From: Coleofasciculus sp. B1-GNL1-01
Lineage (GTDB): Bacteria; Cyanobacteriota; Cyanobacteriia; Cyanobacteriales; Coleofasciculaceae
Assembly (NCBI GenBank): GCA_040220235.1
Contig: JAVJTO010000101.1
DNA: 64,000 bases
Direction: 5' to 3' (one strand)
Positions 9,301-27,035 of the stretch are shown here, piece after piece. Made by a program: the position numbers and the translations under genes. Each line of letters begins with the position of its first letter. The stretch's first letter is position 1. The notes under the pieces were generated by a model that saw nothing but the letters and a program-made list of their open reading frames with translations, searched no databases and was not told the origin of the DNA.

Positions 9301-10134
9301 ATGGCAATCAAATACCGAATCGAGCAAAATCATCCGCCTCGTTCTCCTAGAGAAAGCTTGCCTACCATGTACGATTTACCGAGTGAAAATCCGGAGGAAC
9401 CTGGTTTGCCTGACGAATTTCATGATCTTCAACCCGAACTATTGCGCGTGACGTTTCATCCAGCTAACTACCCACCTGAGCAAATATTTTGCGGTAGTGA
9501 TATGAACCTTTACTACGATGCGCGTCACCATTATTGGTATAAACGACCCGATTGGTTTGGTGTGGTGGGCGTATCAAGACTTTATGATCAGGAGGATTTA
9601 CGGTTAAGTTATGTGATTTGGCAAGAAATGGTGCGTCCGACGGTGGTGGTGGAATTATTGTCACCAGGGACGGAAAAAGAAGATTTAGGTAGAAGTACAC
9701 GCCTGAGTAGTGAACCCCCGACAAAATGGGAAGTCTACGAACAAATTTTAAATGTCCCCTATTATGTGGTGTTTGACCGCTATACGGATCGATTAAGAGG
9801 GTTTGCACTTACGGCTGGTTTTTACCAAGAGTTGGAGTTAACCGAACCGAGGATTTGGATACCCCAACTGGAATTAGGTTTGGGATTGTGGTCGGGAGAG
9901 TACGAAGGGATTAATCGTCTATGGTTACGTTGGTACGATGCTGAAGGGAATTGGATTCTAACCCCAACTGAACGGGAAGCGATCGCCCAAGAACAACTGC
10001 AAGCTGAACGACAACGGACTGAAGCCGAACGACAACGGGCTGAAGCTGAACGACAACGGGCTGAAGCTGAACGAGTGCGATCGCAGCGTCTTGAAGAACT
10101 GTTGCGTTCCCACGGGATCGATCCAAATAGTTGA
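9301..10134 (+). CDS. Uma2-family (DUF820) endonuclease
   Basis: LPSENPEEPGLPD, RPDWF, VELLSPGT motifs; C-terminal AEAERQR repeats; ATG at 9301 chosen as the likely start. Confidence 0.9.
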   Translation: MAIKYRIEQNHPPRSPRESLPTMYDLPSENPEEPGLPDEFHDLQPELLRVTFHPANYPPEQIFCGSDMNLYYDARHHYWYKRPDWFGVVGVSRLYDQEDLRLSYVIWQEMVRPTVVVELLSPGTEKEDLGRSTRLSSEPPTKWEVYEQILNVPYYVVFDRYTDRLRGFALTAGFYQELELTEPRIWIPQLELGLGLWSGEYEGINRLWLRWYDAEGNWILTPTEREAIAQEQLQAERQRTEAERQRAEAERQRAEAERVRSQRLEELLRSHGIDPNS

Positions 10135-10281
10135 TCTCAACTCCAACCTTCCTGGTATATTCAAGCTAGATCCCCGACTTCTTCAAGAAGTCAGGGATCT
10201 GGGATATCTCATTGCATAAGTCTCTGACAGTGAGAGATACAACTCAGTATTAGATATCGATCTGCTGCTGTCAGGTGAACT

Positions 10282-10782
10282 ATGCATCCAACTAACGATC
10301 CTTCGGCGTATTCCTCAACCCACTCTCCTTGTACCTCTGTTCCCCTTGATTTGTTCAAAAGTGGACAGTTGCTGGCGATTAAACCTGACTGTCGGGGAGC
10401 CTTAATTATCCAAAAACGGTTTTATGCTGATTTTGTGGGTTCTGGGGCTGCGGTGGGCAGTAGTTTTGACGTTGATTGTACATCAGTGTATGCAATTGGG
10501 GAGGTTGAATTTTATGCGCCTACTACATACACTGAACGCCAGCAAGCATTTCAGAAACGCCGGGAATATTGCGAAACGTTACAATCGATTGTCGTCATAC
10601 CTGCTCCCCTCGATCGCGCCACCACAATCCTCCATCAATTGTCTCTCTGGTTGGACGTTAATGTGATTTCCGAAATTCCCTCGGCTTTGATTGCCCAGTT
10701 AGCCGGAGTGTTGACAAAGACTGTAATGATTATTCGCCAACAACGTCCAACTAATCCTGCGGAAAGATTAAATATTCATTAA
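10282..10782 (+). CDS. Cyanobacterial hypothetical protein, possibly a degenerate Crp-like regulator
   Basis: 166 aa ORF; C-terminal IAQLAGV...TV HTH-like segment. Confidence 0.55.
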   Translation: MHPTNDPSAYSSTHSPCTSVPLDLFKSGQLLAIKPDCRGALIIQKRFYADFVGSGAAVGSSFDVDCTSVYAIGEVEFYAPTTYTERQQAFQKRREYCETLQSIVVIPAPLDRATTILHQLSLWLDVNVISEIPSALIAQLAGVLTKTVMIIRQQRPTNPAERLNIH

Positions 10783-11050
10783 ATTTCTCAGCCAGATTAT
10801 TTAATTTAACCCGAAAGTATGAGGTAGATTGATCCATTCCAAGTGATCATGGCATCGTTACCGTAGTTTGGGAGTTTCGCGATGCCTGGATTCTCTGTAA
10901 GTTATACCGTCTCCGAATTAATTTCTCTAATTTTTTGTGCTGTTGTTGGCACGGGAATAATATTTATGGGATACTTTTTGGCATTATCTGTCGTCTAAGG
11001 GAACAATCTCACCCATTCCGGTGGGATGGTGTTGTTCTCAAGGGTTAACT

Positions 11051-12127
11051 ATGAGTCGTCGGTCAAGTTCTTACGCGGTTTTCGTCGTACTGGCGGTTAT
11101 AACTGTACTGTCTGTTATCGTAACTAACGTGCCGCGATCGCTGTCTGTCTCCCCAAGTTCTGGCAATGCTACTCTCATCGCCGCTACGCCGACTCAACAA
11201 TGGCAAGATGCCAAATTATTGCGTAATATTAAGGGACATACAGATGCCGTAGGTGCGATCGCGATTAACCTAGATGGACAATTCTTCGCCACAGGTAGCG
11301 ATGATCAAACGATTAAACTCTGGAACCTAAACACAGGTCAGCCATTGCGGACACTTTCTGGACATTCGGATCAAGTTACGGCTCTCGCCATTAGTCCCGA
11401 TGGAGAAAAATTGGTGAGTGGGGGAGGTATTGAGGACGGTTCAATTAAACTCTGGAATCTGCAAACAGGTGAATTAATTAATACTCTCCAAAAGAAAGAA
11501 GGGATGATTCCATCTTTGGCAATTAGTCCAGACGGACAAATTCTAGCCAGTGGAAGGAGAGGAGAAGGATTAGGGTTTGTTTCGGAAATCGCCCTTTGGG
11601 ATTTAGAAACAGGCGAACAACTGCTTCAGTTTGAGATTGAAAATTTAACCCTGTCTCTTGCGTTTAGTCCCAATGGAGAACTCCTTGCCAGTGGTTCTGA
11701 GGACGGTACTATTCATCTATGGAATTGGCAGAGTGGAGAAATTCTGCATATCCTCCAGCATCCTCAGTCTTTAAGAGCATTGGCATTTAATCAGGATGGA
11801 AATGTCTTAGTGAGTGAGAGTTTTGCCGAAACAGTTAACCGATGGAATCCAAAAACTGGGGAATTACTGTCCACACCTATAGAAAACCCCAAACCTGTCT
11901 TTGTCAATGCCTTGGCGTTGCATCCGTCGGGTAATATCTTAGCCAGTGCGTTAGGTCCTTATGGCAGATTAGGGTTATGGAATTTGCAAACAGGTGAGTT
12001 GATGACGACGTTAGAAGGATTTTCCGGTTCGATTTTCTCCCTCGGCTTTAGTCATGATGGACAGATATTGGTAAGTGGGAGTAATGATGGCGCGATCGCT
12101 ATTTGGGGAACGGGGAACAGGGAATAG
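11051..12127 (+). CDS. WD40 repeat protein with N-terminal signal/TM
   Basis: About 7 WD40 repeats; ATG at 11051 chosen as the likely start. Confidence 0.85.
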
Positions 12128-12373
12128 GCAATAGGCAATAGGCAATAGGCAAGAGTGTTTTTAGGGAATGGGCAATGGGCAATAGGCAATAGGCAATAGG
12201 CAATAGGCAATAGGCAATAGGCAATAGTCGGGGCGGGTTTAGTTACATCTGGGTGAGGGAAGAAACGATAGTTGTAAAATCAGCCCCTACATTCGGAAAG
12301 GGCGGGTTTTGAACAAAGGTTAGTATCAATAGCGGAACGAAAGCCCATAAACCCGCCCCTACAAACCATACTT

Positions 12374-12476
12374 CCTCAACTTCCACCACTGCCTAAAATA
12401 ACTAAACTCAACAACGTCCCTGTATTCCAGAGACTGTGAACGAGCATGGGCGCTACAAGATTGCGCGATCGCGTGT
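12374..12476 (-). pseudogene. Orphan 3' end of the CPBP protease gene (left direct repeat of the island)
   Basis: Encodes TRSRNLVAPMLVHSLWNTGTLLSLVILGSGGS*; about 11 mismatches in 101 nt versus 25390-25492. Confidence 0.9.
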
Positions 12477-12578
12477 TATTGTAGGGAGAGTGCCAATGGA
12501 TTTTGGGATAGTCTATTCAGGCTGTTGTGATAGAGTAATGAGTAAATCGGATGATTCTCGCGATCGCACAATTCCCTC

Positions 12579-14705
12579 GTGTCTAATTCCTTCTGGCAAG
12601 CCAAAATCCAAGGATTACTCTATGATTTTGACCGGGATAGGTTGAGAAACGCCACCGGGGAAAATGCTCAAGTCTTTTTAAATGCCCTAAAATCGGTCAA
12701 TCCTGCCCCGACTGTATCCCAAGCCTATCAAATTGCTGAAGCTAGCGATCGCGCCCTGCTGAATGGGTTGCAGTTGCCCCTGACTCTGCCGACGCTGAAG
12801 GTGGCACATCTGCTATCGGGGGCAGAACTCCCTCTATCGGTGAATGTAACTGATTACTATCGGTTAACCTCCCCGTCACCCGCAGACAGCCCCCCCAACT
12901 CCCCAGAATCCATCGATTCCCGCCAACTCTTTTGGTGGCTATGGCGCTGCTTACCCGAAGCCGTGAGTCAGCGACTGGGAGAGGATGCCTTACTCATGCC
13001 AGCAGTACCCCTATTACCCGATGCCTCGGTGTGGAGTCAAGCCAGCCTCACCGCCGCTTTAGCTGGGGCATTAACTGACCCGAACTCCTCCCCTCCCCAT
13101 CTGGCTACCTTTAGCTTTTCTCCGGTGCAAGAGTTAATTAAAGCCAGTCGCAAAATGCGGGATTTCTGGGCAGGGTCTTGGGTGTTGCATTATCTGTCGG
13201 CTAAACTTTGCTGGCGGCTGGCACAATGCTATGGACCCGATAGCCTGATTTATCCGAGTCTGTTTCAGCAACCCTTAATTGACCATTGGTTGGGGCAGAC
13301 GTGGGCGGAGTTTCGACCGTGGATACCGCAACCGTCAGCATCTGTCTTACTCACCGCCGGATTCCCTAATGTGATTGTTGCCCTTCTTCCCGCTAAAGAC
13401 GTGAAGTCTGCCATGCAAACCGCCCGTCAAACCCTGCTGGCGGAATGGTCTAGGATTGGGCAGTTGGTGTTTGCTGAGTTAAGGCGACGCCACTGGATGC
13501 CGGATTTAGGGGAAAATAGTGCTACTTGGTCGGGGTGGTTGGCGTCTCAGTGGCAAACCTATTGGACGGCGTTACCGATTGGCGTGAATCCCTTGACAAA
13601 TCAGGCAATTGCTGCATCAGACGCCGCCCAACTGCAAGCCTGGTTAGACCCGATGAATCGTCTGTGCCAGCTTCAGGATACTCCAGACCAACGCCGCGCC
13701 CTGTTTTTACCGGAGGAATTGGAGTTTATGCGGGCGGTGTATGAAAAAGACCCCTCGATGGGGGTGAATGTGGGGTCATGGTGGTCTTATTTGTTTGACC
13801 AACTGCGATATGCGGCGGGTACAGTGAAAAATAGTCGGGTTTGGCAAGTGCCAACGGCTTTTTTACCTCGGTCTACGGTGTCGGGTATCGGTTCAGTGGT
13901 GTATCCTAATCCAGACCAACGCTATACCACAGAAGGGGATACGGGGAAATACTGGGAACGACAGGTGGGATTGTTTGATGGGATTGAAGAACTCAACGCT
14001 ACGGAGACGCTGAAGCGGGGGTTGCATCAGGTTTTACCGCAATTGTTAGGGGGACGCGGAGAGGGGGAGATGGGGGGACGCGGAGAGGGGAGGAGGTTTG
14101 AACGACAATTGTATCCAGATTTGAGTTCTGGTGTGGCGGGTTGGTTGCGGACTCATCCGCAGGCGATAGAGTATTTTCGTTGGGTAACGGCTGAAATTAG
14201 TCAAGCTTTTGCCTGGACGACGCAATCACCGGGGACAGGGGATTTTCCCCCGGCGACGCAACCTTGGGGGATTCCTTGGATTGAACAAAATTATCCCGAT
14301 TTACTTAATTCTCGCTTGCTGAATGCGGGATGGTTGATTGATGAGTTTACCCCCACCAATCCTAATCCCAGCCAACCTTTTACCCGTGAAGCACAAAAGC
14401 AGGTGAGACAGGCAGAATGTCAGCGGGTTGGGTTGAAGATTGCTGAGTATTTTACACCGGGGAATAATCCCAGTGATTGGTATGTCCTGGCGGCTGGGGA
14501 TGGGGATGGGATGAGTCGCTGGTTGAATGGGGAACGATTGAAGGCGTATCGGCAAGGGTTTGAGGCGGATTTAGCTGGGTATTTGCGGGCATTAAGTCAC
14601 ACCACACCCCTCCCCCAGCAGGATGACACTATCCAAGGTTGGTTGAAATTAACGGCGTTTATTTTGCGTCATCGGCAGATTGGTATGGGTGAGGGGATGG
14701 GGTGA
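12579..14705 (+). CDS. cas10: Type III-B Cas10/Cmr2, internally deleted (no GGDD motif)
   Basis: FSPVQELIKASRKMRDFWAGSW, AGFPN and DGDGM motifs; Cmr2-like C-terminus WLKLTAF; GGDD absent. Confidence 0.9.
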   Translation: MSNSFWQAKIQGLLYDFDRDRLRNATGENAQVFLNALKSVNPAPTVSQAYQIAEASDRALLNGLQLPLTLPTLKVAHLLSGAELPLSVNVTDYYRLTSPSPADSPPNSPESIDSRQLFWWLWRCLPEAVSQRLGEDALLMPAVPLLPDASVWSQASLTAALAGALTDPNSSPPHLATFSFSPVQELIKASRKMRDFWAGSWVLHYLSAKLCWRLAQCYGPDSLIYPSLFQQPLIDHWLGQTWAEFRPWIPQPSASVLLTAGFPNVIVALLPAKDVKSAMQTARQTLLAEWSRIGQLVFAELRRRHWMPDLGENSATWSGWLASQWQTYWTALPIGVNPLTNQAIAASDAAQLQAWLDPMNRLCQLQDTPDQRRALFLPEELEFMRAVYEKDPSMGVNVGSWWSYLFDQLRYAAGTVKNSRVWQVPTAFLPRSTVSGIGSVVYPNPDQRYTTEGDTGKYWERQVGLFDGIEELNATETLKRGLHQVLPQLLGGRGEGEMGGRGEGRRFERQLYPDLSSGVAGWLRTHPQAIEYFRWVTAEISQAFAWTTQSPGTGDFPPATQPWGIPWIEQNYPDLLNSRLLNAGWLIDEFTPTNPNPSQPFTREAQKQVRQAECQRVGLKIAEYFTPGNNPSDWYVLAAGDGDGMSRWLNGERLKAYRQGFEADLAGYLRALSHTTPLPQQDDTIQGWLKLTAFILRHRQIGMGEGMG

Positions 14706-15187: not shown

Positions 15188-16279
<1,092 letters not shown>

Positions 16280-16510
16280 CGCGGAGAGGGGGTGACGCGG
16301 AGATGGGGTGACGCGGAGAGGGGGTGACGCGGAGATGGGGTGACGCGGGGACGCGGGGACGCGGAGAGGGGGTGACGCGGAGAGGGGGTGACGCGGGGAC
16401 GCGGAGAGGGGGAATGGGGAATAGTACAGAATGTCCTAACTTACCAAGGTAGCTGCTATACAAAGGACAAATGACCAATGACGAATGACCAATGACAAAT
16501 GACCAATGAC

Positions 16511-16690
16511 CACCGACGCTCAGGTAAAATGGCTGAAAGGCTGATTCTTTCGTTGTGAGCGTCGGTCGCTTTCCCTGTAAGGGTTTCAACGATTTTTTCG
16601 GTCGGGTTTGTCGGATTTTTTCGGTCAATATTGGTGAGCGTCGGAAAGTGCCTCTAGACCTCAAGCAGGGCAAGGGTTTAAGATGAAGGG
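16511..16690 (+). promoter_or_regulatory. CRISPR leader, copy 1
   Basis: Near-identical to the sequence before the 19189 array; abuts the first repeat. Confidence 0.85.
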
Positions 16691-16797
16691 GTCCCCACTC
16701 GCTGGGGAAACTATTGGAATGGAAACCTTTAGAACAAATTTAAAAATACTTAGTGTCTTTTGTCCCCACTCGCTGGGGAAACTATTGGAATGGAAAC
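16691..16797 (+). CRISPR. Mini-array 1: 2 repeats (GTCCCCACTCGCTGGGGAAACTATTGGAATGGAAAC, 36 nt) and 1 spacer (35 nt, 16727-16761)
   Basis: Identical repeats at 16691-16726 and 16762-16797; CCCCA/TGGGG hairpin; GAAAC end. Confidence 0.92.
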
Positions 16798-16852
16798 CCC
16801 CCACCAACACTCAGGCTAGTGGGGGATTTTTGTGGACTTCCAGAAAATAAAC

Positions 16853-16971
16853 ATATCGTGTCCGGTTGTCTTTAAATTGTTTGTAGTAGGCACTTTAGTG
16901 CATTAAAATGGCTTATTAAAGTGCTGACTACGAACAGGCTCATACAAGCCTGATAAAACCGGACATGATAT
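16853..16971. mobile_element. MITE (TATCGTGTCCGGTT...AACCGGACATGATA) inserted in the trailer of array 1
   Basis: TIRs; trailer homology with arrays 2 and 3 resumes after 16971. Confidence 0.75.
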
Positions 16972-17057
16972 AATTTCAGATAATGGTAAATCCAAAAAAG
17001 AGAGCTAATTCAATACATAAAAATACTGAATCGAGGTTTGATCGAGTTCCCTATTTC

Positions 17058-17243
17058 GGGCTTGCTGAATTAATCTGTCAGCTATACTATACAAGGGTTT
17101 TAATGTATTTTTTCACCCAACAAGTGCAAGGTTTTGGCACATAAATACTCAAAATCGAAGCATCTGTAACAGGAAAAATGTATCCCATGTCTCCCCGCGT
17201 CTGGAGCGTCCTTTGCCTCACCACAACACTTATTCAGCAGCCC
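17058..17243. mobile_element. MITE of the GGGCTTGCTGAAT family
   Basis: TIRs GGGCTTGCTGAAT / TTATTCAGCAGCCC. Confidence 0.7.
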
Positions 17244-17331
17244 TATTTAGGATTGCTATATGATGTTTAAATGCACAAAAGCGTATACCAAGACAATAAT
17301 ACCAAGACAATAAAAAGACAGGAGTAGGTAA

Positions 17332-17733
17332 ATGGTAAATATACGTTCATTCAAGGAGTTAAGAGTATGGAATAATGCTATAGATGTAGCCATGAATATT
17401 TTTGAGATTACTAAATCTTTTCCAGTAGAAGAACGCTTTTCTTTAACTGATCAGATACGTCGTTCATCAAGGTCTGTTGCTGCCAATATCACAGAAGCAT
17501 GGAGAAAACGGAGGTATCCAGCCGCCTTTGTCAGTAAGCTTAGTGACGCCGAAAGTGAAGCGGCAGAAACTCAAACTTGGATTGAGATTGCTTTGAGATG
17601 CGGCTATTTAACAAAAGAAGAAGCTTCATACCTAGATTCTCGATGTGAAGAAGTATTGGGACAAATCGTGGCAATGATAAACCATCCAGAGAAATGGACA
17701 ATCCGGTCTAATTCTTCTGCCTTAAGGTCTTAA
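17332..17733 (+). CDS. Four-helix-bundle protein (23S rRNA IVS / bAvd-like family)
   Basis: F.EL.VW, FP.EERFSLTDQIRRSSRSVAANITE, SEAAETQTW motifs; GGAG RBS. Confidence 0.9.
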   Translation: MVNIRSFKELRVWNNAIDVAMNIFEITKSFPVEERFSLTDQIRRSSRSVAANITEAWRKRRYPAAFVSKLSDAESEAAETQTWIEIALRCGYLTKEEASYLDSRCEEVLGQIVAMINHPEKWTIRSNSSALRS

Positions 17734-17784
17734 ATCTCCCTCTCCGCGTCTCCCTATCCCCGCGTCCCACAAACCCCTAACTCA

Positions 17785-18720
17785 ATGAATCAAATTCACT
17801 ACTTGTATTTATACCTCCTTTCTCCTTTACATACGGGAGGCACCACCCAAGAGGGAAACTTGGTGGGAATTGCCCGTGAATCTCATACCAATTTACCCTA
17901 TATTCCCTCCTCCACAATTCGTGGGCGGCTGCGGGCGAGTGTCAATGATGAGGCGCTACGGGTGCAGTTATTTGGTCCGGAATTAACGGATATTAAAAGT
18001 CCCACGGCTAGTGATACGAGTCCGAATCCGAGTCCGGAATCGTCTCAATTAGAACAGGGAGATATTTGGTTGGGCGATGGTTCAGTATTATGGTTACCGG
18101 TGTCTTCGTTGAGTCATGGCGTGGTGTGGATTAGTTCCCCGATGTTATTACGTCGCTGGGCAAGGTTTGTGGCAGATTTACTGACTATTCCAGCCCCCTA
18201 CAGCACGAATTTGGTATCGGAAACCACGGAGAATCCCCGACCGATTTATTTGAAGGATGCGATCATTAAGGATAGTTTGCAGCCCTGGTCGAATTGGCAA
18301 AGGTTTGTTCCCCAAGCTGAAAATCAGAGTGAAATTCAGCGGGTGTTACTGTTACCAGACCAGCATTGCAGTACGTTAATTCAAATGAGTTTATGGCGGC
18401 AAGTCAAGATTAAGTTAGATGCCCATAAATCCGTTGAGGGAGGGTTTCGCTATGAAGAGGCGATTCCACCGGATACGTTAATGTATGTACCGTGGGGGGT
18501 AACGTCTCAAGTGAATAGTAAGGCGACAACGAAACGGGGACAAGAGTTGGCGAATCGCCGACAAGGTTTAGCTGAGGGGTATGGGATGTCGTCTACGGAG
18601 AATGGGGTGGATTTAGCTAGGGGTTTGTTTGAATGGTTGCTTGATGAGGAGGAACGGAACATTCTGCAATTTGGGGGACAGGAAAGTTTGGGACGGGGGT
18701 TTGTGCAGTCGTTTCGTTAG
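17785..18720 (+). CDS. cmr4: Cmr4 (Cas7-group RAMP)
   Basis: LSPLHTGG, IARESHTNLPYIPSSTIRG, YEEAIPPDT, QFGGQESLGRG. Confidence 0.9.
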   Translation: MNQIHYLYLYLLSPLHTGGTTQEGNLVGIARESHTNLPYIPSSTIRGRLRASVNDEALRVQLFGPELTDIKSPTASDTSPNPSPESSQLEQGDIWLGDGSVLWLPVSSLSHGVVWISSPMLLRRWARFVADLLTIPAPYSTNLVSETTENPRPIYLKDAIIKDSLQPWSNWQRFVPQAENQSEIQRVLLLPDQHCSTLIQMSLWRQVKIKLDAHKSVEGGFRYEEAIPPDTLMYVPWGVTSQVNSKATTKRGQELANRRQGLAEGYGMSSTENGVDLARGLFEWLLDEEERNILQFGGQESLGRGFVQSFR

Positions 18721-19009
18721 GGAATAGGGAATAGGGAATAGGGAATAGGGAATAGGGAATGGGGAATGGGGAATAGGGAATGGGGAATAGGGAATGGGGA
18801 ATAGTAAGGAATGTCTTACAGCAGGTTGCGTTAGTCTATTTACAAATCAATTGGCTGAAAAACTGCTAAAAGCCCTATATAATCAGTGTTTCTCTCCCCT
18901 ATTGCCTATTGCCTATTGCCTATTGCCCAGCGCGAAGCGCTATAACTTACCAAGGTAGCTGCTATATAAAGGACAAATGACCAATGACAAATGACAAATG
19001 ACCAATGAC

Positions 19010-19369
<360 letters not shown>

Positions 19370-19505
19370 CCCCCACCAGCACTCAAGCTAATGGGGGGTT
19401 TTTGCGACTTCCAGAAAATAAATGATTTCAGACAATGACAAATCAAGAAAAAAGAAGGTAATTTAATACAATAGATAAATTGAATATAAGTTGTTGAGAA
19501 TTCCT

Positions 19506-19605
19506 TAAGCTATCATGCATTTAAATTGGGTATTAGTAGCGAGCAAGATTCTCGCACAAGGACTTCGTCATTGTTGACATTCAACTTTAAATGCCGAACA
19601 GCTTA
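19506..19605. mobile_element. MITE (TAAGCTGTTCGGCATTTAAA-type ends); family also at 45202-45329, lone end near 63506
   Basis: Imperfect TIRs bounded by TA; shared interior. Confidence 0.75.
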
Positions 19606-19637
19606 TTCTCTGTCCCCCTATTTCCTCTTACGAAACC

Positions 19638-20033
19638 ATGTCCTTTACCACATTTGACCCACGCACCCTAGCGACTCCCGTTTACGAGGCGTTGACTCAA
19701 TTGAAATTGCAACCCAATCAGAACGAGATTCGCCTCAAAGAACAGAAGAATCAAGCCGTTGAACTCTATACCTACCTCTCAACCTGGGGTATGATGCGTC
19801 TCAAGGCAGAGGAAAACGCCCTGAATCAGGAGGGAAAAAAACAAGTTGTTAAACTATTCTTCGAGTGTTTACAGATACTGTCTTTCCAGGAAAACCTTGC
19901 CGGAGAACAGGGATTGACTGTGTTAAAAAACCTAACAACTGACGAATACTTAGGCTTAACTGGGTTAGGATTAGCCGTAGCACAAGAGTTTAGTTTCTGG
20001 GCAAGTGCGGTTTATCACGATATTTCCGGGTAA
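19638..20033 (+). CDS. cmr5: Cmr5-like small subunit
   Basis: 131 aa helical protein between cmr4 and cmr6; TYLSTWG..RL motif. Confidence 0.7.
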   Translation: MSFTTFDPRTLATPVYEALTQLKLQPNQNEIRLKEQKNQAVELYTYLSTWGMMRLKAEENALNQEGKKQVVKLFFECLQILSFQENLAGEQGLTVLKNLTTDEYLGLTGLGLAVAQEFSFWASAVYHDISG

Positions 20034-20072
20034 TCGTGAGAGTCACCTACTCAACCAGCAACTTAAAAGCTT

Positions 20073-22025
20073 ATGATACCCAATCGACCCAAAAAACCCC
20101 AACCACCCAAACCGCGTCCACAGAAACCGAAGAAAAAGATTACAGGGGGTCGTCATCAACCGCCCCTAGGCACAGAAAAAACCGGGACAGAAAACCCACC
20201 GCCTTCTCCGTGGTTAAACCCCGATTGTAAACCCAATCCCGCAACGGATGCCAGTTTTATTGAATATTTGCGCTGGATGCGGGAACCCGATAGGGAGTAT
20301 AAAGACCCGACAAAAGTTCAGATTCTGCAAATGGCACAGGAGGGAGCAAAGCATTATTCAGCACGTTTAACTCAACTGAACAAACGCACCGAATTAATTG
20401 CCAGTCAGACCTTTTTGGTTCAATGTCCCTGGCGAATTCGAGTCGGCGGACACCGGGGACCAGAGAGTATTTTATTACCTGCCTTTGATGCCTTGGGTAT
20501 GCCTTATATTCCCTCCTCTACCCTGCGGGGGGTGACGCGGAATCAGGCGATTCGTCAAGTGATGGCAGAGACAGGACTGGATTGGAAACAGGTAGAAAAC
20601 CATGAAACCATTGCCTGTTATTTTGGTTCCCTAACCCCAGAAAACCAGGCTCACCATGCCGGAAAGATTGTGTTTCTCGATGCCTATCCCTTACCCAATC
20701 AATCGGAATTGGTTGCAATGGATATGGCAAATAATATTTGGACATGGGATAATCATTCTCCCACGTATAGTCCCAATCCCAACCCCTTTTTATCCCTCAA
20801 AGCACCCACATTTTTAATCGGGTTACGCCTAGCAAGTGGCTGTCATGACTCTCAACTCTTGGTTCAGGTACAAGAGTGGTTAATTGCCGGATTTGGATTA
20901 GGAATTGGTTCTCAGGTCAATACTGGATACGGCAAATTAATTCACCCTGAAACAGCTACGCCTAACCATGAGTTTTTCCGGGTCAAGTTTACCTTAGAAG
21001 GGCAACTAATTCACGGACGGCAAAACTTTATCCCCTGGAAATTCCATCCTCGTCGTCAGCAGTGGCAAATGCAGGGACGCGCCGATGCTGAGGTGCGTCC
21101 GGTGGCGTTTAAGTCGATGCTGCGCTACTGGTTTCGCACGTTGGTGTTGGGGGTATCGACACCGTCTCAGGTGCAAGACTGGGAAGCAAAACTCTTTGGT
21201 GCAATTAACCCTAAGCCACAACAGGGATGGTTGAAAGTTGGTCTACTCAAGGGTCAGGTAACTCAGAGAGAACCCCATCGGAATCATAATCATGGCTGCG
21301 GCGAACAAGAGGGTATTTTCACGCTGGAATTTTCTCAGGAAGCACCAACCGTTCAGCGACAAGCCTTTGCGGAAACAGGTGAGAGTGATCTGACGAATTT
21401 AGGTCAATCTCTAACCTGGCTAACCTTTCACTTGGGAAGTCTGGGTCAAGGCGCTAGGCGTCCTTGTTATTCTCGCACCAATCCACCGTTATATCGGGGT
21501 TCAACGTTCATCCCAGAGAGGAGGGATGAGTTTTGGTTGCTTCCGGATACAATTGAGGAGTTCCAGCGATTATTTCAGGAACGGTTACAGAGGTTTTACT
21601 CAGCACTCTGCCAATTATTTGAGGCTGAAACGATTAATCCGCAATCGCTAATTTCTGCGGGTTACGTGAGTAATCACCAATGGGTTGAAGCGGTTGATGC
21701 GAACGGCAAAATTGTTGTGGTTCGTGGGAACAAAATGAGTAAAAAACCGTATGCGTTAGAAATCTTGCTCGAGTTCTTCCATGAGTTGGAAACTCAGAAA
21801 CGTTACCGAGATGCTAAGAGTTTATGTGGTGGTGTTAAAACGGATAAGTACAAAATTGGTGGGCAAGAATTTACGCGGAAAGCGACGCCTTCACCGATAT
21901 GGATTGTTGATTTAGGGGATTATCAAGTGGTAACGATATTTGGCGCGACTCGCAATCCGCGTCAAGAGTATTTGAGACGGTTGCAGCGTGAATGTCAACA
22001 GTTGCTTTGTTTAGTTAATCGGTAA
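20073..22025 (+). CDS. cmr6: Cmr6-Cmr1 fusion RAMP (typical of cyanobacterial III-Bv)
   Basis: PYIPSSTLRG, FLDAYP, GIGSQVNTGYG (Cmr6), then EVRPVAFKSMLRYWFR, LFG, GSLGQGARR (Cmr1). Confidence 0.85.
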   Translation: MIPNRPKKPQPPKPRPQKPKKKITGGRHQPPLGTEKTGTENPPPSPWLNPDCKPNPATDASFIEYLRWMREPDREYKDPTKVQILQMAQEGAKHYSARLTQLNKRTELIASQTFLVQCPWRIRVGGHRGPESILLPAFDALGMPYIPSSTLRGVTRNQAIRQVMAETGLDWKQVENHETIACYFGSLTPENQAHHAGKIVFLDAYPLPNQSELVAMDMANNIWTWDNHSPTYSPNPNPFLSLKAPTFLIGLRLASGCHDSQLLVQVQEWLIAGFGLGIGSQVNTGYGKLIHPETATPNHEFFRVKFTLEGQLIHGRQNFIPWKFHPRRQQWQMQGRADAEVRPVAFKSMLRYWFRTLVLGVSTPSQVQDWEAKLFGAINPKPQQGWLKVGLLKGQVTQREPHRNHNHGCGEQEGIFTLEFSQEAPTVQRQAFAETGESDLTNLGQSLTWLTFHLGSLGQGARRPCYSRTNPPLYRGSTFIPERRDEFWLLPDTIEEFQRLFQERLQRFYSALCQLFEAETINPQSLISAGYVSNHQWVEAVDANGKIVVVRGNKMSKKPYALEILLEFFHELETQKRYRDAKSLCGGVKTDKYKIGGQEFTRKATPSPIWIVDLGDYQVVTIFGATRNPRQEYLRRLQRECQQLLCLVNR

Positions 22026-22295
22026 TAAGCAGTGGTCTGTCAACCCTAAATTGATGGGTTGCGACTGACGCGGAGATGGGGAGATGGAGAGACGCGGAGT
22101 CTGGGCTTGAATTACCGCAGTTTTCAAGTTAGTAGACTACAGACGATGATTGCGCTGAAAAGCAAGCCGATACAATTTTGTATTCCATAAACGTGAAAAG
22201 CGCCGTAAATTCCTTTTGGGAATTTGCCATCATCTGAAATCATTTATTTTCTGGAAGTTGCAAAAACCCCCCATTAGCCTGAGTGCTGATGGGAG

Positions 22296-22331
22296 GTTTC
22301 CATTCCAATAGTTTCCCCAGCGAGTGGGGAC
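22296..22331 (-). CRISPR. Solitary repeat with no spacer, inverted; leader at about 22332-22447, trailer at about 22220-22295
   Basis: Exact reverse complement of the 36-nt repeat, flanked by leader and trailer homologs. Confidence 0.88.
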
Positions 22332-22923
22332 AGCCTCATCTTAAACCCTTGCCCTGTCTGAGGTCTAGAGGCACTTTCCGACGCTCACCAATTTTGACCG
22401 AAAAAATCCGAAAAATCTCCCTAGAAAAATCGCTGAAACCATTACAAACAAAGTCCTATTTTAGCTGTGCCAAGCTATATATGTAGTGGCGTGGTACACC
22501 TTATTTGATGATTAGAATTACGCCCGGAAACCGTAGGGGCGCATGGCGTGCGCCCGATTAAATGGTAAGATTGATTCCACAATTTTAGCTGTGTCAGTCC
22601 GCCATCGTGTGTTATCGCTTGCGTAACGCACCTTAACCAAGATATAGCACTACGCACTCTAGTTAGGACATATAGTGTTTTCAGATGATTCGTGTACAGC
22701 CAAAGCACTGAAAGCCTTACTGGGCAAGGGTTGCTTGTTTAGATTTCAAATGTAAACACTATATCAAGAAAAATTAAAATCGCTCAATCTTTTGTAAGGT
22801 AGAGACGTAGCATAAGGAGTCTCTACATTTCACTATTCCCCATCCCCGCGTCTCTCCATCCCCGCGTCCCGGTGTCTCCTCCCCACCACAAGACTTATTC
22901 AACCACCCCTAAATAATGATAAG

Positions 22924-23712
22924 TTGAGAGTAACGCACGATCTTGCCGCCGTAACTGATATGCCAGACTTCTCATACTTCTCCCTGATTGTGGCGCAAAC
23001 CCCTCCAACCCCGACATCATCTCCTGATTTAGAGTTAATTAAACAGCAGATGGAGTTTCTCAAAGATGCCAATAGCCAGTTAACAGAAAGTTTTAATGCA
23101 TTTATTGGCACCTTGAATTTAGCCTTTGTCCTCATGGGAATATTTCTAGGGATTTTAGGCATTGTTGGCACATTCTTCTACGGAAAAACCCTCAACGACA
23201 TCAAGCAATCCGTTGATAACATGGTTGACCAAGAAGTGAATCGAATTGTGTCACAAACAATTCGCGCCAAGGTGGATTATCTCCAAAAAGTGCTAGAACG
23301 GGAAGAAGTGATTGGCTGGATAACTATAGATTATCTCTTACCTACCAATCAACGTGTGCGACCGCCCCAAGAATTCAAACTGCTGCAAAAACGGGGATTT
23401 CAGGATGTAAAAATCCACTACCAAATCCCAGCCAGCCGTCGCCGTAGTCTGGATATTTTAGTCTTAGATTTAGTCAATCATCAACTACCGGACTCAGAAA
23501 TTGTCACCGTTGTCAATCAGGTAATCGACAATTTAGCACCAACATCTATTTTAATCGTTTATGTCAGCGGTATCTCCCCAGCCATTGACGAATTCAAAAA
23601 GAGTAATAAATTCGAGTATTACACCGTTGCAAATAACCGCATCACCCTGATCAGTGCAGCCGTGAATTGCGCTTACGTTGCTGATGCGTTACGTCAGGGA
23701 GATGATCTGTGA
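22924..23712 (+). CDS. Membrane protein: coiled coil + TM + receiver-like alpha/beta domain; candidate type III accessory effector
   Basis: TM LAFVLMGIFLGILGIVGTFF; DILVLD, ILIVYV and AN..ITL strand pattern; start uncertain. Confidence 0.6.
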   Translation: MRVTHDLAAVTDMPDFSYFSLIVAQTPPTPTSSPDLELIKQQMEFLKDANSQLTESFNAFIGTLNLAFVLMGIFLGILGIVGTFFYGKTLNDIKQSVDNMVDQEVNRIVSQTIRAKVDYLQKVLEREEVIGWITIDYLLPTNQRVRPPQEFKLLQKRGFQDVKIHYQIPASRRRSLDILVLDLVNHQLPDSEIVTVVNQVIDNLAPTSILIVYVSGISPAIDEFKKSNKFEYYTVANNRITLISAAVNCAYVADALRQGDDL

Positions 23713-24262: not shown

Positions 24263-25243
24263 ATGAAACCGTTCCCCCCTCAATTTCACAAATCCCCGAC
24301 CGCTGAAACGACAGCCCAGCAAGCGTTATCGGAATTTGGAATGACCCAACTCCTCTCTCTAATCAAGCACTACCGCGACATTGACTTCGATGCATCGCAA
24401 ATGCACCTAACCGATGCTGAAGTGAATGCGATCGCGAAACTATTTATCCAGGAGTTGACGCGAAGCATCGACGGAAAACTCATCGCTGGCGCCTTAAACG
24501 CCCTGCGTAATGGTGAGGAGATGGAGACTCAAAACTTAGTTGGGGCGGGTTTAGTTATATCTGGGGAAAAAAGAAACGATAATAGTGAAACCCGCCCCTA
24601 CACACAATTCAACACTTTGCCAATTCCTACTCCTCGTTACCAAGAAGGCGATCGCGTTGAGTGGAAAACAAATCAAACAGACTGGGGCGTAATTTTGGGA
24701 CGCTTTTATGACTACAACCACCATCACAATCAGTGGATGGTTTACTACATCATCCAACTCGCCCCCGATTCTCCCAGTGCAGCATGGGTAACCACGGATA
24801 CGGCGTCTGAAGCGGATTTAGAAAAAATGCCGGATACCGTTGAACCAACCGAAGAGAATAACAACCCCTACCGTTATCCCACCCATTTTACTGGCGCGAT
24901 CGCATCCCCATCTGTGCGTAGTTCAACTGGACGCTATAATCCCCGTCGCCGACACAATCTCCGCCCGATCAACCAGCGGGAAAAATACATTATTGACCTT
25001 TATTGTTACTGTGAATTAGGGATGACGCCAAGGCAGTTTTATAGCAAATGGAATGTCACGTATGAACAACTGTCTCATATCTGTTCCCGTTCCCTGGGGA
25101 CAGTGCAGTGTTGGTTCAAACGAGGTAAAGGATACTACCCCCCTCAACCCGTGGATTTGCGCCATCTGGCAATCTTGGATTTTTTGTTAGAGCATTTTGA
25201 AGAGATACCCCAATCCCTGATCAACCTGCTGTGTTCGCCTTGA
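24263..25243 (+). CDS. Multidomain hypothetical protein with C-terminal HTH
   Basis: FYSKWNVTYEQLSHICSRSLGTVQCWF HTH-like segment; GGAG RBS. Confidence 0.7.
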   Translation: MKPFPPQFHKSPTAETTAQQALSEFGMTQLLSLIKHYRDIDFDASQMHLTDAEVNAIAKLFIQELTRSIDGKLIAGALNALRNGEEMETQNLVGAGLVISGEKRNDNSETRPYTQFNTLPIPTPRYQEGDRVEWKTNQTDWGVILGRFYDYNHHHNQWMVYYIIQLAPDSPSAAWVTTDTASEADLEKMPDTVEPTEENNNPYRYPTHFTGAIASPSVRSSTGRYNPRRRHNLRPINQREKYIIDLYCYCELGMTPRQFYSKWNVTYEQLSHICSRSLGTVQCWFKRGKGYYPPQPVDLRHLAILDFLLEHFEEIPQSLINLLCSP

Positions 25244-25391
25244 GAATCTATCACGTTTCAGGGCGCACGATAAGCGATGTCATTTGTCATTTGTTGATTG
25301 TTCATTGTTCATTGTTCATTAGTAATCCTCTTCCCCCTCTCCCCATCTTCCCCTCTCCCCCTCTCCGCGTCTCCCCCTCTCCGCGTCTCCC

Positions 25392-27035
25392 TCAACTTCC
25401 ACCACTGCCTAAAATGACTAAACTCAATAATGTTCCACTATTCCAGAGACTGTGAACAATCATGGGCGCCAGCAGATTGCGCGATCGCGTGTACACGATT
25501 CCTAATACAATGCCTAATGTGGCTAAGGGGAGGACTTCTGACAAACTCAGGTGCGCGATCGCAAAGACGAGACTACTGGTGACAATTGCTCCCCAAACAG
25601 GCATATAGCGGGTTAACGACGGTAATAAAAACCCTCGGAACATGAATTCCTCAAATAGGGGTGCAGCAATGCAAGCCGTGCTAAAAAATATCACGATAGC
25701 AACTGTATCCTGTCCTTCTAGAACTAGAGAAAGAATCGGATTACTCCCCCCTTGTCCCTGCCATAATTTCTGATTCAGGAGTGAGACTAAAATGACCAGG
25801 GGAAGCGCCACAAGATAGCCACCTAATCCAAAAATAATCCCTTTTTTGCGGAATTTAATCCGAAACCAATCCTCTGGCAAGGGTAAAAAATCCTTGATCG
25901 AAAGGTAAAGGACTCCCAATCCTCCAGCCGCTAGCACAATGTAAGTCATTAAAACATAGAATGCCTGCATTCTTACCGTAAAACTAGCCGGATTCAGATT
26001 GAACAAGCCCAGGAAAAGTGGCAGGATAAAAATAGGAAGGAGGATTTGACCGATAAAGAAAAAGCCCAGAATCAAGACTTGCCAAATCATTTCTCCATCC
26101 CAAGGCGTATCCCAAGGCATAGTGCTGTTGGTGGCGAGGAGCGATCGCTCTCCCTGAAGTAACCACTGACCCAGCAAAAATAGCAAAAGTCCCACCCCAA
26201 TCAGACCGCCAATTCCGGGAATGGCACTAATTAGAGTTAACTTAACTAAAGCTTGTTTGGCTCTCTCTTTTTCTTGAGCTTGTAAGGATACTAAGGCATC
26301 TTGACGCTGTTGCAATTGATAAAGCTGGAACAATGCCCGATACTGGAACCAGCTATCTAAATTTTGTTGAATTTTTGACTCCGCATCGGGTAAAATTCGA
26401 GGCGGATCACTCCAAAGACCTGCTAATATGGCGGCAGTTTTGGCGGATGGCGTCGTTGCTGGAGCGGTACTTTCCACAGTTTCTTGCTCAATCAACTCAT
26501 TCCACGTCTGAATCGCCATCTCTGTTCTACCCTGTTGAGCTTGCAGCAGTCCCAACCGCACATTCAGTTCATCAATAAGTTGTTCTGTCTGAGATAATGA
26601 CTTTTGCAACTGCTTTCGCTGCTGAGAGGTCATCGGAGCCTCATCAATGGGAGCGATTTGCATTTGCGGTTTAGCCAGCTCATCACCGATAGATGTTGTC
26701 ACATCTGGGTTTGAGGAAACTTGATCCAGTTTGGCAATAATTTTTGATTGAGTCGTCTGCGCGGTTTCCAGGACTTGTTCATATTGCTCTTGTGCATTTT
26801 CAAACGGATTATCACCGAGTAATGCATTCCGCGCCGCCGTTAAATCCTCTTCTCCTTGTGTTGCTAAACTCTGACCTTCGGCAGCATGGAGTAATAAATT
26901 GGTTTGGTAAAGTTCTAAGCGACTTTGAATTTGAGGCTGACCCCAGCTTTCAACCAAAGAAAGGCTGACTTGTAAGAGTACCGCCACCGTCAGAACGGCT
27001 AAAATTAACCGTTTAATCACTAACCCAGTATTCAT
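25392..27035 (-). CDS. CPBP (CAAX/Abi) family intramembrane metalloprotease
   Basis: EEFMFRG, FAIAH and HSLWN motifs; multiple TMs. Confidence 0.92.
   Translation of the reverse strand: MNTGLVIKRLILAVLTVAVLLQVSLSLVESWGQPQIQSRLELYQTNLLLHAAEGQSLATQGEEDLTAARNALLGDNPFENAQEQYEQVLETAQTTQSKIIAKLDQVSSNPDVTTSIGDELAKPQMQIAPIDEAPMTSQQRKQLQKSLSQTEQLIDELNVRLGLLQAQQGRTEMAIQTWNELIEQETVESTAPATTPSAKTAAILAGLWSDPPRILPDAESKIQQNLDSWFQYRALFQLYQLQQRQDALVSLQAQEKERAKQALVKLTLISAIPGIGGLIGVGLLLFLLGQWLLQGERSLLATNSTMPWDTPWDGEMIWQVLILGFFFIGQILLPIFILPLFLGLFNLNPASFTVRMQAFYVLMTYIVLAAGGLGVLYLSIKDFLPLPEDWFRIKFRKKGIIFGLGGYLVALPLVILVSLLNQKLWQGQGGSNPILSLVLEGQDTVAIVIFFSTACIAAPLFEEFMFRGFLLPSLTRYMPVWGAIVTSSLVFAIAHLSLSEVLPLATLGIVLGIVYTRSRNLLAPMIVHSLWNSGTLLSLVILGSGGS

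Follow-up and report, generated by a model that had tools for sequence, protein, structure and literature searches.

Probable multiplication of a CRISPR leader-array-trailer unit within a type III-Bv cmr island of Coleofasciculus

In the 64,000-nucleotide stretch of Coleofasciculus sp. B1-GNL1-01 DNA analysed here (the window), three copies of one leader-repeat-trailer unit were found within and directly after a type III-Bv cmr operon. This interleaved layout, which is rare, probably arose when an ordinary III-Bv array unit of a Coleofasciculus lineage multiplied within the 13-kb island to which it belongs, a process through which array fragmentation would have extended to the effector operon. 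This lineage is of subtype III-Bv, but the window copy is defective, with a Cas10 that lacks the GGDD palm motif.

The island is bounded by a 106-bp direct repeat (Table 1), across which the flanks were joined directly in five of the seven same-genus loci examined. The gene identities given in the initial annotation were borne out by HMM matches or, for cmr5, which matched no HMM, by position and homologues. The III-Bv assignment also stood, based on the Cmr6-Cmr1 fusion accompanying cmr2-3-4-5, the CRISPR3-type repeat and the lack of cas6 at the locus (not found on this contig, C101, with the queries used). As claimed, the window was without adaptation genes and Cas6: neither cas1 nor cas2 was found on the contig, and no Cas6 was detected by PF10040, the sole family searched, whose matches in the genome lay only on contigs C59 and C85, while the Cas6/Cmx6 on C51 belongs to an I-MYXAN system. 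No cognate cas1/cas2 was found in the genome, which held only the I-MYXAN Cas4-Cas1 and Cas2 (C51) and a cas2 fragment (C26). The genome's one Cas1 had been considered as an RT fusion, which was rejected, as it is the I-MYXAN Cas4-Cas1. A linked csx18-cas1-cas2 module was not found, the search for csx18 likewise giving no match. Cas10 of the window strain has suffered an in-frame loss of 253 aa including GGDD, whereas the four aligned relatives (93-98% identical) have proteins of 946-974 aa that keep the motif.

Table 1. Coordinates of the cmr island and its CRISPR units in the window
Feature	Position	Strand	Evidence or remark
106-bp direct repeat, left copy (border of the ~13-kb cmr island)	12371..12476	+	88.7% identical to 25387-25492
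cmr2/cas10, 708 aa	12579..14705	+	Cmr2_N match
cmr3	15191..16279	+	PF09700, E 5e-64
Unit 1, upstream block: dispersed short repeat and heptamer tandem repeat	16437..16512	+	alignment
Unit 1, leader	16513..16690	+	-10-like box TAAGAT at 16679-16684
Array 1: repeats 16691-16726, 16762-16797; one 35-nt spacer 16727-16761	16691..16797	+	
Trailer 1: hairpin and T-run (weakened)	16798..17057	+	fold z -1.0
Four-helix-bundle gene, between unit 1 and cmr4	17332..17733	+	TIGR02436
cmr4	17785..18720	+	TIGR02580 above cut-off
Unit 2, upstream block and leader	18943..19188	+	leader 19012-19188, -10-like box 19177-19182
Array 2: repeats 19189-19224, 19261-19296, 19334-19369	19189..19369	+	
Trailer 2: strongest terminator-like hairpin and T-run	19370..19480	+	-24.7 kcal/mol, z -5.7
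cmr5 (small subunit), 131 aa	19638..20033	+	position and homologues between cmr4 and cmr6/1
cmr6-cmr1 fusion, 650 aa	20073..22025	+	TIGR01898 (N-terminal half)
Trailer 3, abrupt end ~75 nt past repeat	22222..22295	-	z -3.7
Unit 3 repeat, single, perfect, no spacer	22296..22331	-	
Unit 3, leader, truncated, ~115 nt (22446-22332)	22332..22446	-	-10-like box 22343-22338
Right copy of the 106-bp direct repeat	25387..25492	+	overlaps 3' end of CPBP protease gene

The layout described in the initial annotation was confirmed, with one unit behind cmr3, a second behind cmr4 and a third, in inverted orientation, behind cmr6-cmr1; mapping of the repeats gave the claimed one, two and zero spacers, none common to two units of the window, and the leader of unit 3 is shortened relative to the ~180 nt of the others. 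Leader, repeat and trailer are common to the three units. Leader 1 is 96.6% identical to leader 2 over 174 nt and 88.3% to leader 3 over 111 nt, and the trailer of unit 2 is 91.7% identical to that of unit 3 over 72 nt and 88.9% to that of unit 1 over 54 nt; these similarities greatly exceed chance (E of 3e-77, 3e-34, 4e-23 and 3e-12, respectively, against the whole genome). A ~120-nt element whose ends are inverted (16852-16972) splits trailer 1, and in trailer 2 the hairpin and T-run give way to an AT-rich block running to cmr5. The spacers of array 2 measure 36 nt (19225-19260) and 37 nt (19297-19333), and its last repeat is degenerate (5 mismatches). The 36-nt repeat, which shares 25 invariant columns with the repeats of Synechocystis 6803 and genome G034, is of the CRISPR3 type, with a 6-bp hairpin at its 5' end and an AU-rich 3' part. 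The block common to units 1 and 2 begins upstream of the leader, in dispersed short repeats, and the heptamer tract before leader 1 has many matches genome-wide; these dispersed repeats and the heptamer tract are a likely recombination anchor. The upstream repeats, the trailer 1 insertion, the four-helix-bundle gene and the cmr2 deletion had been absent from the initial annotation.

The promoter box and the terminator-like hairpin proposed earlier are both present at the sequence level. A -10-like hexamer was found at a conserved position in all six copies (three here, three in the relative described below) and in 15 of 23 canonical cas2-linked leaders, as against a mean of 1.4/23 in 31 control windows, so the leader appears to carry a putative promoter adjoining the first repeat, a trait of bona fide array units. 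Synechocystis CRISPR3 is described as producing a transcript with a 2-nt leader (PMC12464536). Nonetheless, two results tell against the proposed unit: a sigma-70 and terminator consensus scan, which accepts promoters only with a -35 match and hairpins only with loops no longer than 8 nt, called no unit promoter or hairpin, and hairpin covariation over five distinct copies was not above shuffles (138/500). An array directly precedes cmr2 in 10 of 77 loci, but derivation of the trailer from a transplanted cmr2 promoter was unsupported, as the trailer profile had no convincing match outside Coleofasciculus. Among the public runs listed, 20 of 23 contained 0.24-0.34 of the words of 15200-22600, seven being RNA, a figure that is no evidence of expression or habitat. 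Maturation of crRNAs by RNase E, with RNase J, is described for Synechocystis (PMC12464536, PMC6546367), and by analogy we infer that RNase E would act here.

Comparison with relatives, as proposed in the initial annotation, yielded one close relative that carries the three units with differing spacers. It is the metagenomic contig JGI12048J13642_10186896, whose named kin are Coleofasciculus and whose cmr3 and cmr4 are 98-99% identical to those of the window (about 95-97% as cmr3-cmr4 DNA). It represents the one further haplotype seen as DNA in this analysis, on three contigs with identical spacers. Its units occupy matching positions and hold 6, 5 and 1 unshared spacers (seven repeats in unit 1; two repeats and one spacer in unit 3), and the ~120-nt trailer insertion recurs in its units 1 and 2. 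The four-helix-bundle gene is identical as DNA, and cmr3 (dS 0.049, dN 0.008) and cmr4 (dS 0.069, dN 0.003) are under purifying selection between the two haplotypes. A truncated cas2 remnant, recognised by a Cas2 HMM match, precedes the leader of its unit 3, in agreement with the cas2-leader-array order of 23 canonical loci. Among 84 other III-Bv loci, none had repeats between cmr genes, and cmr4, cmr5 and cmr6/1 were collinear in that order in 83 of 83.

The multiplication of the unit with independent spacer sets, as first proposed, is upheld by the first two units of the relative: only 2 positions of 110 in the leader and 3 of 75 in the trailer separate them, yet their 6 and 5 spacers have none in common. 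Such near-identical leaders and trailers with unshared spacers fit a filling that would have followed the duplication of a unit with few or no spacers. In the mechanism that we favour, the unit would comprise a ~180-nt leader with a promoter just 5' of the first repeat, the repeat-spacer array and a terminator hairpin; unit 3 would be the original cas2-linked array, from which units 1 and 2 may have arisen by ectopic recombination at tandem and dispersed repeats 3' of each cmr gene. Spacers would have filled the copies while a compatible Cas1-Cas2 was present, and each copy would be transcribed alone and cut by RNase E, supplying crRNAs to one Cmr complex, with the downstream cmr genes transcribed either by read-through or from a promoter within the AT-rich trailer. 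In keeping with this account, other leaders too have been multiplied in the genome of the window strain. This account is weakened by the relative's locus, at which no cas1 was seen either, by the spacer searches, which gave no target, and by the trailer relationships, as window trailer 3 is closest to the cmr5-linked trailer 3 of the relative (69/74); the two leaders 3 differ at 3 of 110 positions.

The units also recombine with one another. The first spacer of window array 2 matches the last spacer of the relative's array 1 (alignment score 60; next best pair 23) and trailers are mosaic among units in the alignments; since one spacer thus occupies unit 1 of one haplotype and unit 2 of the other, recombination between units is indicated. 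In the relative, cmr5-cmr6/1 is inverted, with breakpoints in units 2 and 3, so that these genes stand in opposite orientations between two inverted units in the two haplotypes. Host homologous recombination between units near-identical over 150-300 bp could account for both the spacer transfer and the inversion, although the trailer relationships are unlike those of one clean inversion and require a further step, either a later conversion or losses from an ancestor with two modules. On this alignment evidence, recombination between units is a better-supported property than regulation of the operon. It had been out of reach of the initial annotation. A further candidate role, units as borders of an allele swap, was weakened, for the swap breakpoints lie inside cmr5: this gene is a mosaic relative to the relative's 163-aa allele (ends 89% and 93% identical, middle 44-82%), and long and short cmr5 types are also mixed among loci without units. 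FastTree trees of 83-84 rows did not reveal the native cmr5 or cmr6/1 allele for this cmr4.

In the window strain, the system appears to be decaying. Its arrays are shorter than those of the relative (1/2/0 against 6/5/1 spacers), and given this difference, the loss of the GGDD domain of Cas10 and the lack of cognate cas1/cas2, the 1/2/0 state is probably one of erosion. The possibility raised at the outset that the cassettes are decayed remnants therefore holds in part, for the strain and not for the layout. That the system of this strain is probably dying limits its interest.

A different reading, which we regard as unlikely, is that of a selected control device, in which leaders and terminators would set the ratios of Cmr subunits or couple them to crRNA supply, with units 2 and 3 forming a reversible cmr5-cmr6/1 switch. 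Both orientations do exist, cmr5 lying behind a leader, an array and a trailer in each, and undamaged proteins of the type in the inverted haplotype are encoded on 12 contigs for Cmr5 and 8 for Cmr6/1. Moreover, the trailer-cmr5 link predates the haplotype split (trailers 63/72 and the first 66 nt of cmr5 57/66, against the identity of cmr3-cmr4 given above), and type III loci are generally without repeats between cas genes, no such enrichment being reported in 10.1101/2023.03.03.530964. However, although inverted units and two orientations are present, the Cmr6/1 alleles of the two orientations are only 43% identical, so no flip of identical DNA is seen, and no recombinase was recognised among the island ORFs examined. 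The layout is also missing from the other loci surveyed, and dispersed repeats fill every intergenic gap, as expected under relaxed selection.

It is likewise unlikely that rearrangements divided and shuffled one long array, the pieces of which went on to lose spacers, with no array newly seeded. The shorter arrays of the window, the spacer found in differing units, the length of canonical cas2-linked arrays (9-90 repeats in 22 of 23) and the lack of a cognate Cas1 to fill new copies would agree with it. Fragments of one array, however, would not each receive a full leader and trailer, which had to be duplicated, and the near-identical duplicates have no common spacer even at the trailer end. 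Equally doubtful is the stronger proposal that the unit has turned into a structural and regulatory element, which would divide the Cmr operon into blocks with promoters of their own and, as an inverted pair, reversibly flip cmr5-cmr6/1 and land foreign cmr alleles; if true, this type III effector would be phase-variable and would shuffle its subunits.

Regulatory mini-arrays, whose crRNA-like products would repress cas genes, are suggested by unit 1, with its two repeats and one spacer between cas genes, but this reading is largely refuted and very improbable. The units have full leaders and perfect repeats, and spacers at orthologous units of the two haplotypes are wholly different, against what conservation of such arrays would predict. 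Spacer matches to the island did not exceed 100 shuffles (fractions 0.17, 0.51 and 0.92), and complementarity to cas promoters or transcripts was not borne out. No convincing match was found in the strain's own genome or the fetched loci; spacer 1 has a 27/35 ungapped match on C120, outside the cas loci examined and slightly above 10 shuffles (24-25). Exact scans of IMG/VR with the three window spacers and the repeat gave no match, and BLASTN of window array 2 and two of the three relative arrays against INPHARED gave none except one to Pseudomonas phages at E 0.1, taken as chance.

A further reading, that the empty unit is mobile in its own right, be it MITE-like, cargo of an array-targeting Tn7 or a neo-array from off-target Cas1 activity, draws on the occurrence of the copies, three in all, at new sites and in either orientation, and is hardly tenable. 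All copies lie within 6 kb of the 13-kb island and none elsewhere in the 8.66-Mb genome: of 29 repeat matches with at most 7 mismatches, 6 are the units of this locus and 23 (6 mismatches each) are arrays with a different leader on C47 and C143, and the trailer has no other occurrence. Among 400 other genomes of the order, the trailer gave no match of note (best E 1e-4, 33 nt). Its profile had no convincing match outside Coleofasciculus (best E 0.023), and this repeat variant, allowing 2 mismatches, was absent from eight same-genus genomes. Furthermore, the copies end unequally, merging with repeats of a generic kind, the island ORFs examined included no recognisable transposase, and neo-arrays would be without a leader. 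Finally, an assembly artefact, conceivable in a short-read-type draft of 172 contigs with many repeats, is scarcely credible, as many substitutions separate the copies, independent contigs carry units at matching positions, which makes the layout an inherited one, and a second assembly (P0024) has the window-type cmr5 together with the sequence before it, with a stop codon upstream as the difference.

If the preferred reading of a multiplied array unit is correct, the locus shows that new arrays can arise through duplication of a complete leader-array-terminator unit, and that the duplicated units may then act as recombination sites for spacer movement and effector gene inversion. The two close haplotypes would constitute a natural before-and-after pair bearing on the many arrays of cyanobacteria and on a type III operon that tolerates internal terminators, and the inverted haplotype implies that an array leader or trailer could suffice for the expression of cmr5-cmr6/1.

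Among known systems, the closest likeness is to CRISPR3 (III-Bv) on pSYSA of Synechocystis sp. PCC 6803, which has the order cmr2-3-4-5-6/1 without cas6 at the locus, a related Cmr6-Cmr1 fusion (50.5% over 589 aa) and Cmr4 (53%), and a related 36-nt repeat with a 5' hairpin and a -10 box directly before the first repeat. There, however, csx18-cas1-cas2 is present and a single array, in which 39 repeats were found, lies apart from the effector operon, whereas the window has its three short units within and behind the operon, lacks adaptation genes and shows a Cas10 deletion. CRISPR-derived regulatory mini-arrays and single repeat units (10.1101/2023.03.03.530964) likewise include short arrays and a single repeat in a cas locus, and single repeats are proposed there to serve inter-locus recombination; as described in that source, the mini-arrays are mostly of type I, conserved and directed at cas promoters, whereas the present units carry complete leaders and spacers that vary, and lack a local target. 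Cyanobacterial Tn7-like transposons that target arrays (PMC11837452) represent another process that splits cyanobacterial arrays, from which this locus differs in that no transposon genes were recognised and every fragment has its own leader and trailer. Array fragmentation is described as typical of multicellular cyanobacteria (10.1101/2020.04.14.041012), and the orphan and fragmented arrays of Anabaena 7120, functional there according to the same source, similarly comprise several arrays of one repeat type with one effector; those are cas-free arrays elsewhere in the genome, whereas the units of the window stand between effector genes and bound an inversion.

The locus represents a genuine variant, specific to one lineage, of a known III-Bv system, with array units standing among the effector genes. 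The copy in the window is decaying. The initial annotation had described three leader-repeat-trailer cassettes with one, two and no spacers, and their positions and content were borne out (see table). Leader 1 is 96.6% identical to leader 2 (174 nt compared) and 88.3% identical to leader 3 (111 nt compared). Among 29 genome-wide repeat matches, six are of the window variant, and the remaining 23 form arrays on contigs C47 and C143 with a different leader. No further copy of the trailer was found in the strain's own genome, and a search of 400 genomes of the order returned no match of note. The C143 arrays belong to another III-B-like system: a 407-aa gene lies between two arrays with near-identical leaders, and C47 (L010) carries a third copy of leader and array. 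On contig C118 (L008), a related leader precedes two degenerate repeats with a single 37-nt spacer. No match to this spacer was found within that locus, and the leader-array is oriented divergently to a different set of type III genes.

Features of the locus and of related arrays in the same genome
Feature	Contig	Position	Remarks
106-bp direct repeat copies	window	12371-12476 and 25387-25492	right copy overlaps a CPBP protease gene at its 3' end
cas10/cmr2	window	12579-14705	in-frame tandem-repeat insertion, length variable among relatives
Unit build	window		leader ~180 nt, 36-nt repeat, hairpin trailer
Unit 1	window		3' of cmr3; 1 spacer
Four-helix-bundle (Avd-like) gene	window	17332-17733	within cmr operon
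Unit 2	window		3' of cmr4; 2 spacers
Unit 3	window		3' of cmr6-cmr1, inverted; 0 spacers; leader shortened to ~115 nt
Island gene	window	22924-23712	262-aa protein, hydrophobic segment, weak DUF4064 match; conserved in relative
Island gene	window	24263-25243	326-aa protein, no family match
III-B-like system, two arrays	C143 (L009)	9902-13126	
Related leader, repeats and spacer	C118 (L008)	about 17480-17750 (-)	
Second leader-like copy	C118 (L008)	near 24575-24645	

The comparison loci came from several sets of matches; one of these, for cmr5, supplied 60 of the 83 other genomes with a cmr5 match, mostly best matches first. Once five duplicates (L007, L068, L071, L075, L099), the Coleofasciculus contigs, the loci of the strain's own genome and any locus lacking cmr5 had been set aside, 84 III-Bv loci remained, related to one another and non-independent, with 79 cmr3-cmr4, 83 cmr4-cmr5 and 84 cmr5-cmr6/1 intervals. 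A fuzzy search found repeats inside these intervals in 0/84 loci. The median gaps were 55 and 53 nt, and no recurring 18-mer was present in any of the 35 gaps longer than 300 nt, a lone tail-like motif occurring in two of them, one each. No description of this layout was found in searches of the open literature, and repeats are likewise reported not to be enriched between the cas genes of type III loci (10.1101/2023.03.03.530964). In the III-Bv loci L061, L062, L065 and L116, isolated repeats lie some hundreds of bases beyond the end of the main array, and in L063 (G136:C1:1269400-1289300) two cmr gene sets are apparently joined in tandem, with cmr4 and a cmr6-like gene each present twice.

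Scanning JGI metagenomes with the repeat yielded six loci on three contigs, which carry identical spacers and therefore represent one haplotype. In its contig JGI12048J13642_10186896 (L036, the relative), the cmr3, four-helix and cmr4 products are 98%, 100% and 99% identical to those of the window, and the units occupy the same places, with six, five and one spacers. The DNA of the four-helix gene is identical between haplotypes, and its flanking genes diverge at dS 0.05-0.07. In the relative, the cmr5-cmr6/1 segment that separates units 2 and 3 has the opposite orientation; cmr4-cmr5-cmr6/1 is collinear in 83/83 other loci. In the collection the proteins of the inverted haplotype are the commoner, found on 12 and 8 contigs, against a single contig for each exact protein of the window. 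In two named MAGs (G3-WIS-01 and G2-EDA-02), consecutive accession numbers place cmr4 beside cmr6/1, so that they may share the inverted layout. A truncated cas2 precedes unit 3 of the relative, and since the canonical order is cas2, a 180-250-nt leader and then the array (23 loci), the original array of the locus was probably that of unit 3.

The interleaved units act as recombination sites. Their trailers are mosaic among units, and both ends of the inversion fall in units 2 and 3. Among 105 spacer pairs, a single outlier (score 60, next 23) joined the leading spacer of unit 2 in the window to the final spacer of unit 1 in the relative; the two differ by a 3-nt gap at the junction and two substitutions. 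Separate captures of one protospacer could explain this pair, but less probably. The inversion was not a clean flip: dS is saturated between the Cmr6/1 alleles, which have 43% identity, and in cmr5 the two ends correspond (89% and 93%, rank 1 of 82) but the middle does not, so that the swap breakpoints lie inside cmr5 rather than at the units. The trailer, the 5' region and the cmr5 start are common to both haplotypes at about 86-88%, which shows that the placement of an array trailer before cmr5 predates the separation of the haplotypes.

The block common to units 1 and 2 begins in short repeats, both tandem and dispersed, of types that abound in the genome and are also found 3' of cmr2, cmr3 and cmr4. 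Ectopic recombination at such repeats would have generated the unit copies, which we infer to be the simplest route. The earlier proposal that an empty cassette seeds new arrays was upheld in part. In the relative, units 1 and 2 show 2/110 leader and 3/75 trailer differences and have a trailer insertion in common, but their spacers are all different, those of the old end included. This combination speaks for a unit that was empty or nearly so when it was duplicated and acquired spacers later. Wholesale array exchange between strains might also account for the differing spacer sets. Nothing in the sequence points to autonomous mobility of the units.

The alternative that the cassettes are decayed remnants fits the window strain in part, though not the layout; the strain looks eroded. 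Besides its 1/2/0 spacers, the leader-repeat junctions are altered in units 1 and 2, the damaged junction of unit 2 is accompanied by a degenerate last repeat, and unit 3 has a cut leader. Specifically in this strain, Cas10/Cmr2 has lost 253 aa in frame, including the GGDD motif that is kept in 4/4 close relatives aligned, and the only Cas1 of the genome is a Cas4-Cas1 on C51, in a type I-MYXAN system with a different repeat. Several CRISPR systems are present in this genome, and every array found is short, with 3-13 repeats. Between haplotypes, dN/dS is about 0.16 for cmr3 and 0.04 for cmr4, and this purifying selection indicates that until recently the effector still worked in the presence of this layout.

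A -10-like hexamer ends 6 nt 5' of the repeat in 6/6 leaders, and 15 of 23 canonical leaders carry one 5-8 nt before the repeat (control-window mean 1.4); in Synechocystis, the leader transcript is 2 nt (PMC12464536). The trailer folds as a hairpin with a T-run behind it (z of -1.0, -5.7 and -3.7 for units 1 to 3), without significant covariation, and a consensus promoter/terminator scan called neither the -10-like boxes nor the hairpins. With such a box and hairpin, each unit looks like a self-contained crRNA gene, and cmr genes 3' of the units would depend on read-through or a trailer promoter. In the inverted haplotype, cmr5-cmr6/1 cannot share a transcript with cmr2-4. A regulatory role, as envisaged in the initial annotation, or a switch would be compatible with the sequence, at low probability.

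The locus resides in a ~13-kb island bordered by the 106-bp direct repeat, which resembles an integration site; no integrase was recognised for the island. Seven same-genus loci were fetched (from eight genomes): five have an empty site, one retains 58 codons of cmr2, and one ends too early to tell. The nearest named proteins come from Coleofasciculus MAGs. The gene set (cmr2, cmr3, the four-helix-bundle gene, cmr4, cmr5 and the cmr6-cmr1 fusion) agrees in order and sequence with pSYSA CRISPR3 of Synechocystis sp. PCC 6803, a III-Bv system, a subtype that employs RNase E instead of Cas6 (PMC12464536 and PMC6546367, which cite Behler et al. 2018). Leaders are also multiplied at other systems of the genome, twice on C143 and on C47, which agrees with the array fragmentation described for multicellular cyanobacteria (10.1101/2020.04.14.041012) and with a general excess of multiple arrays (10.1101/148544).
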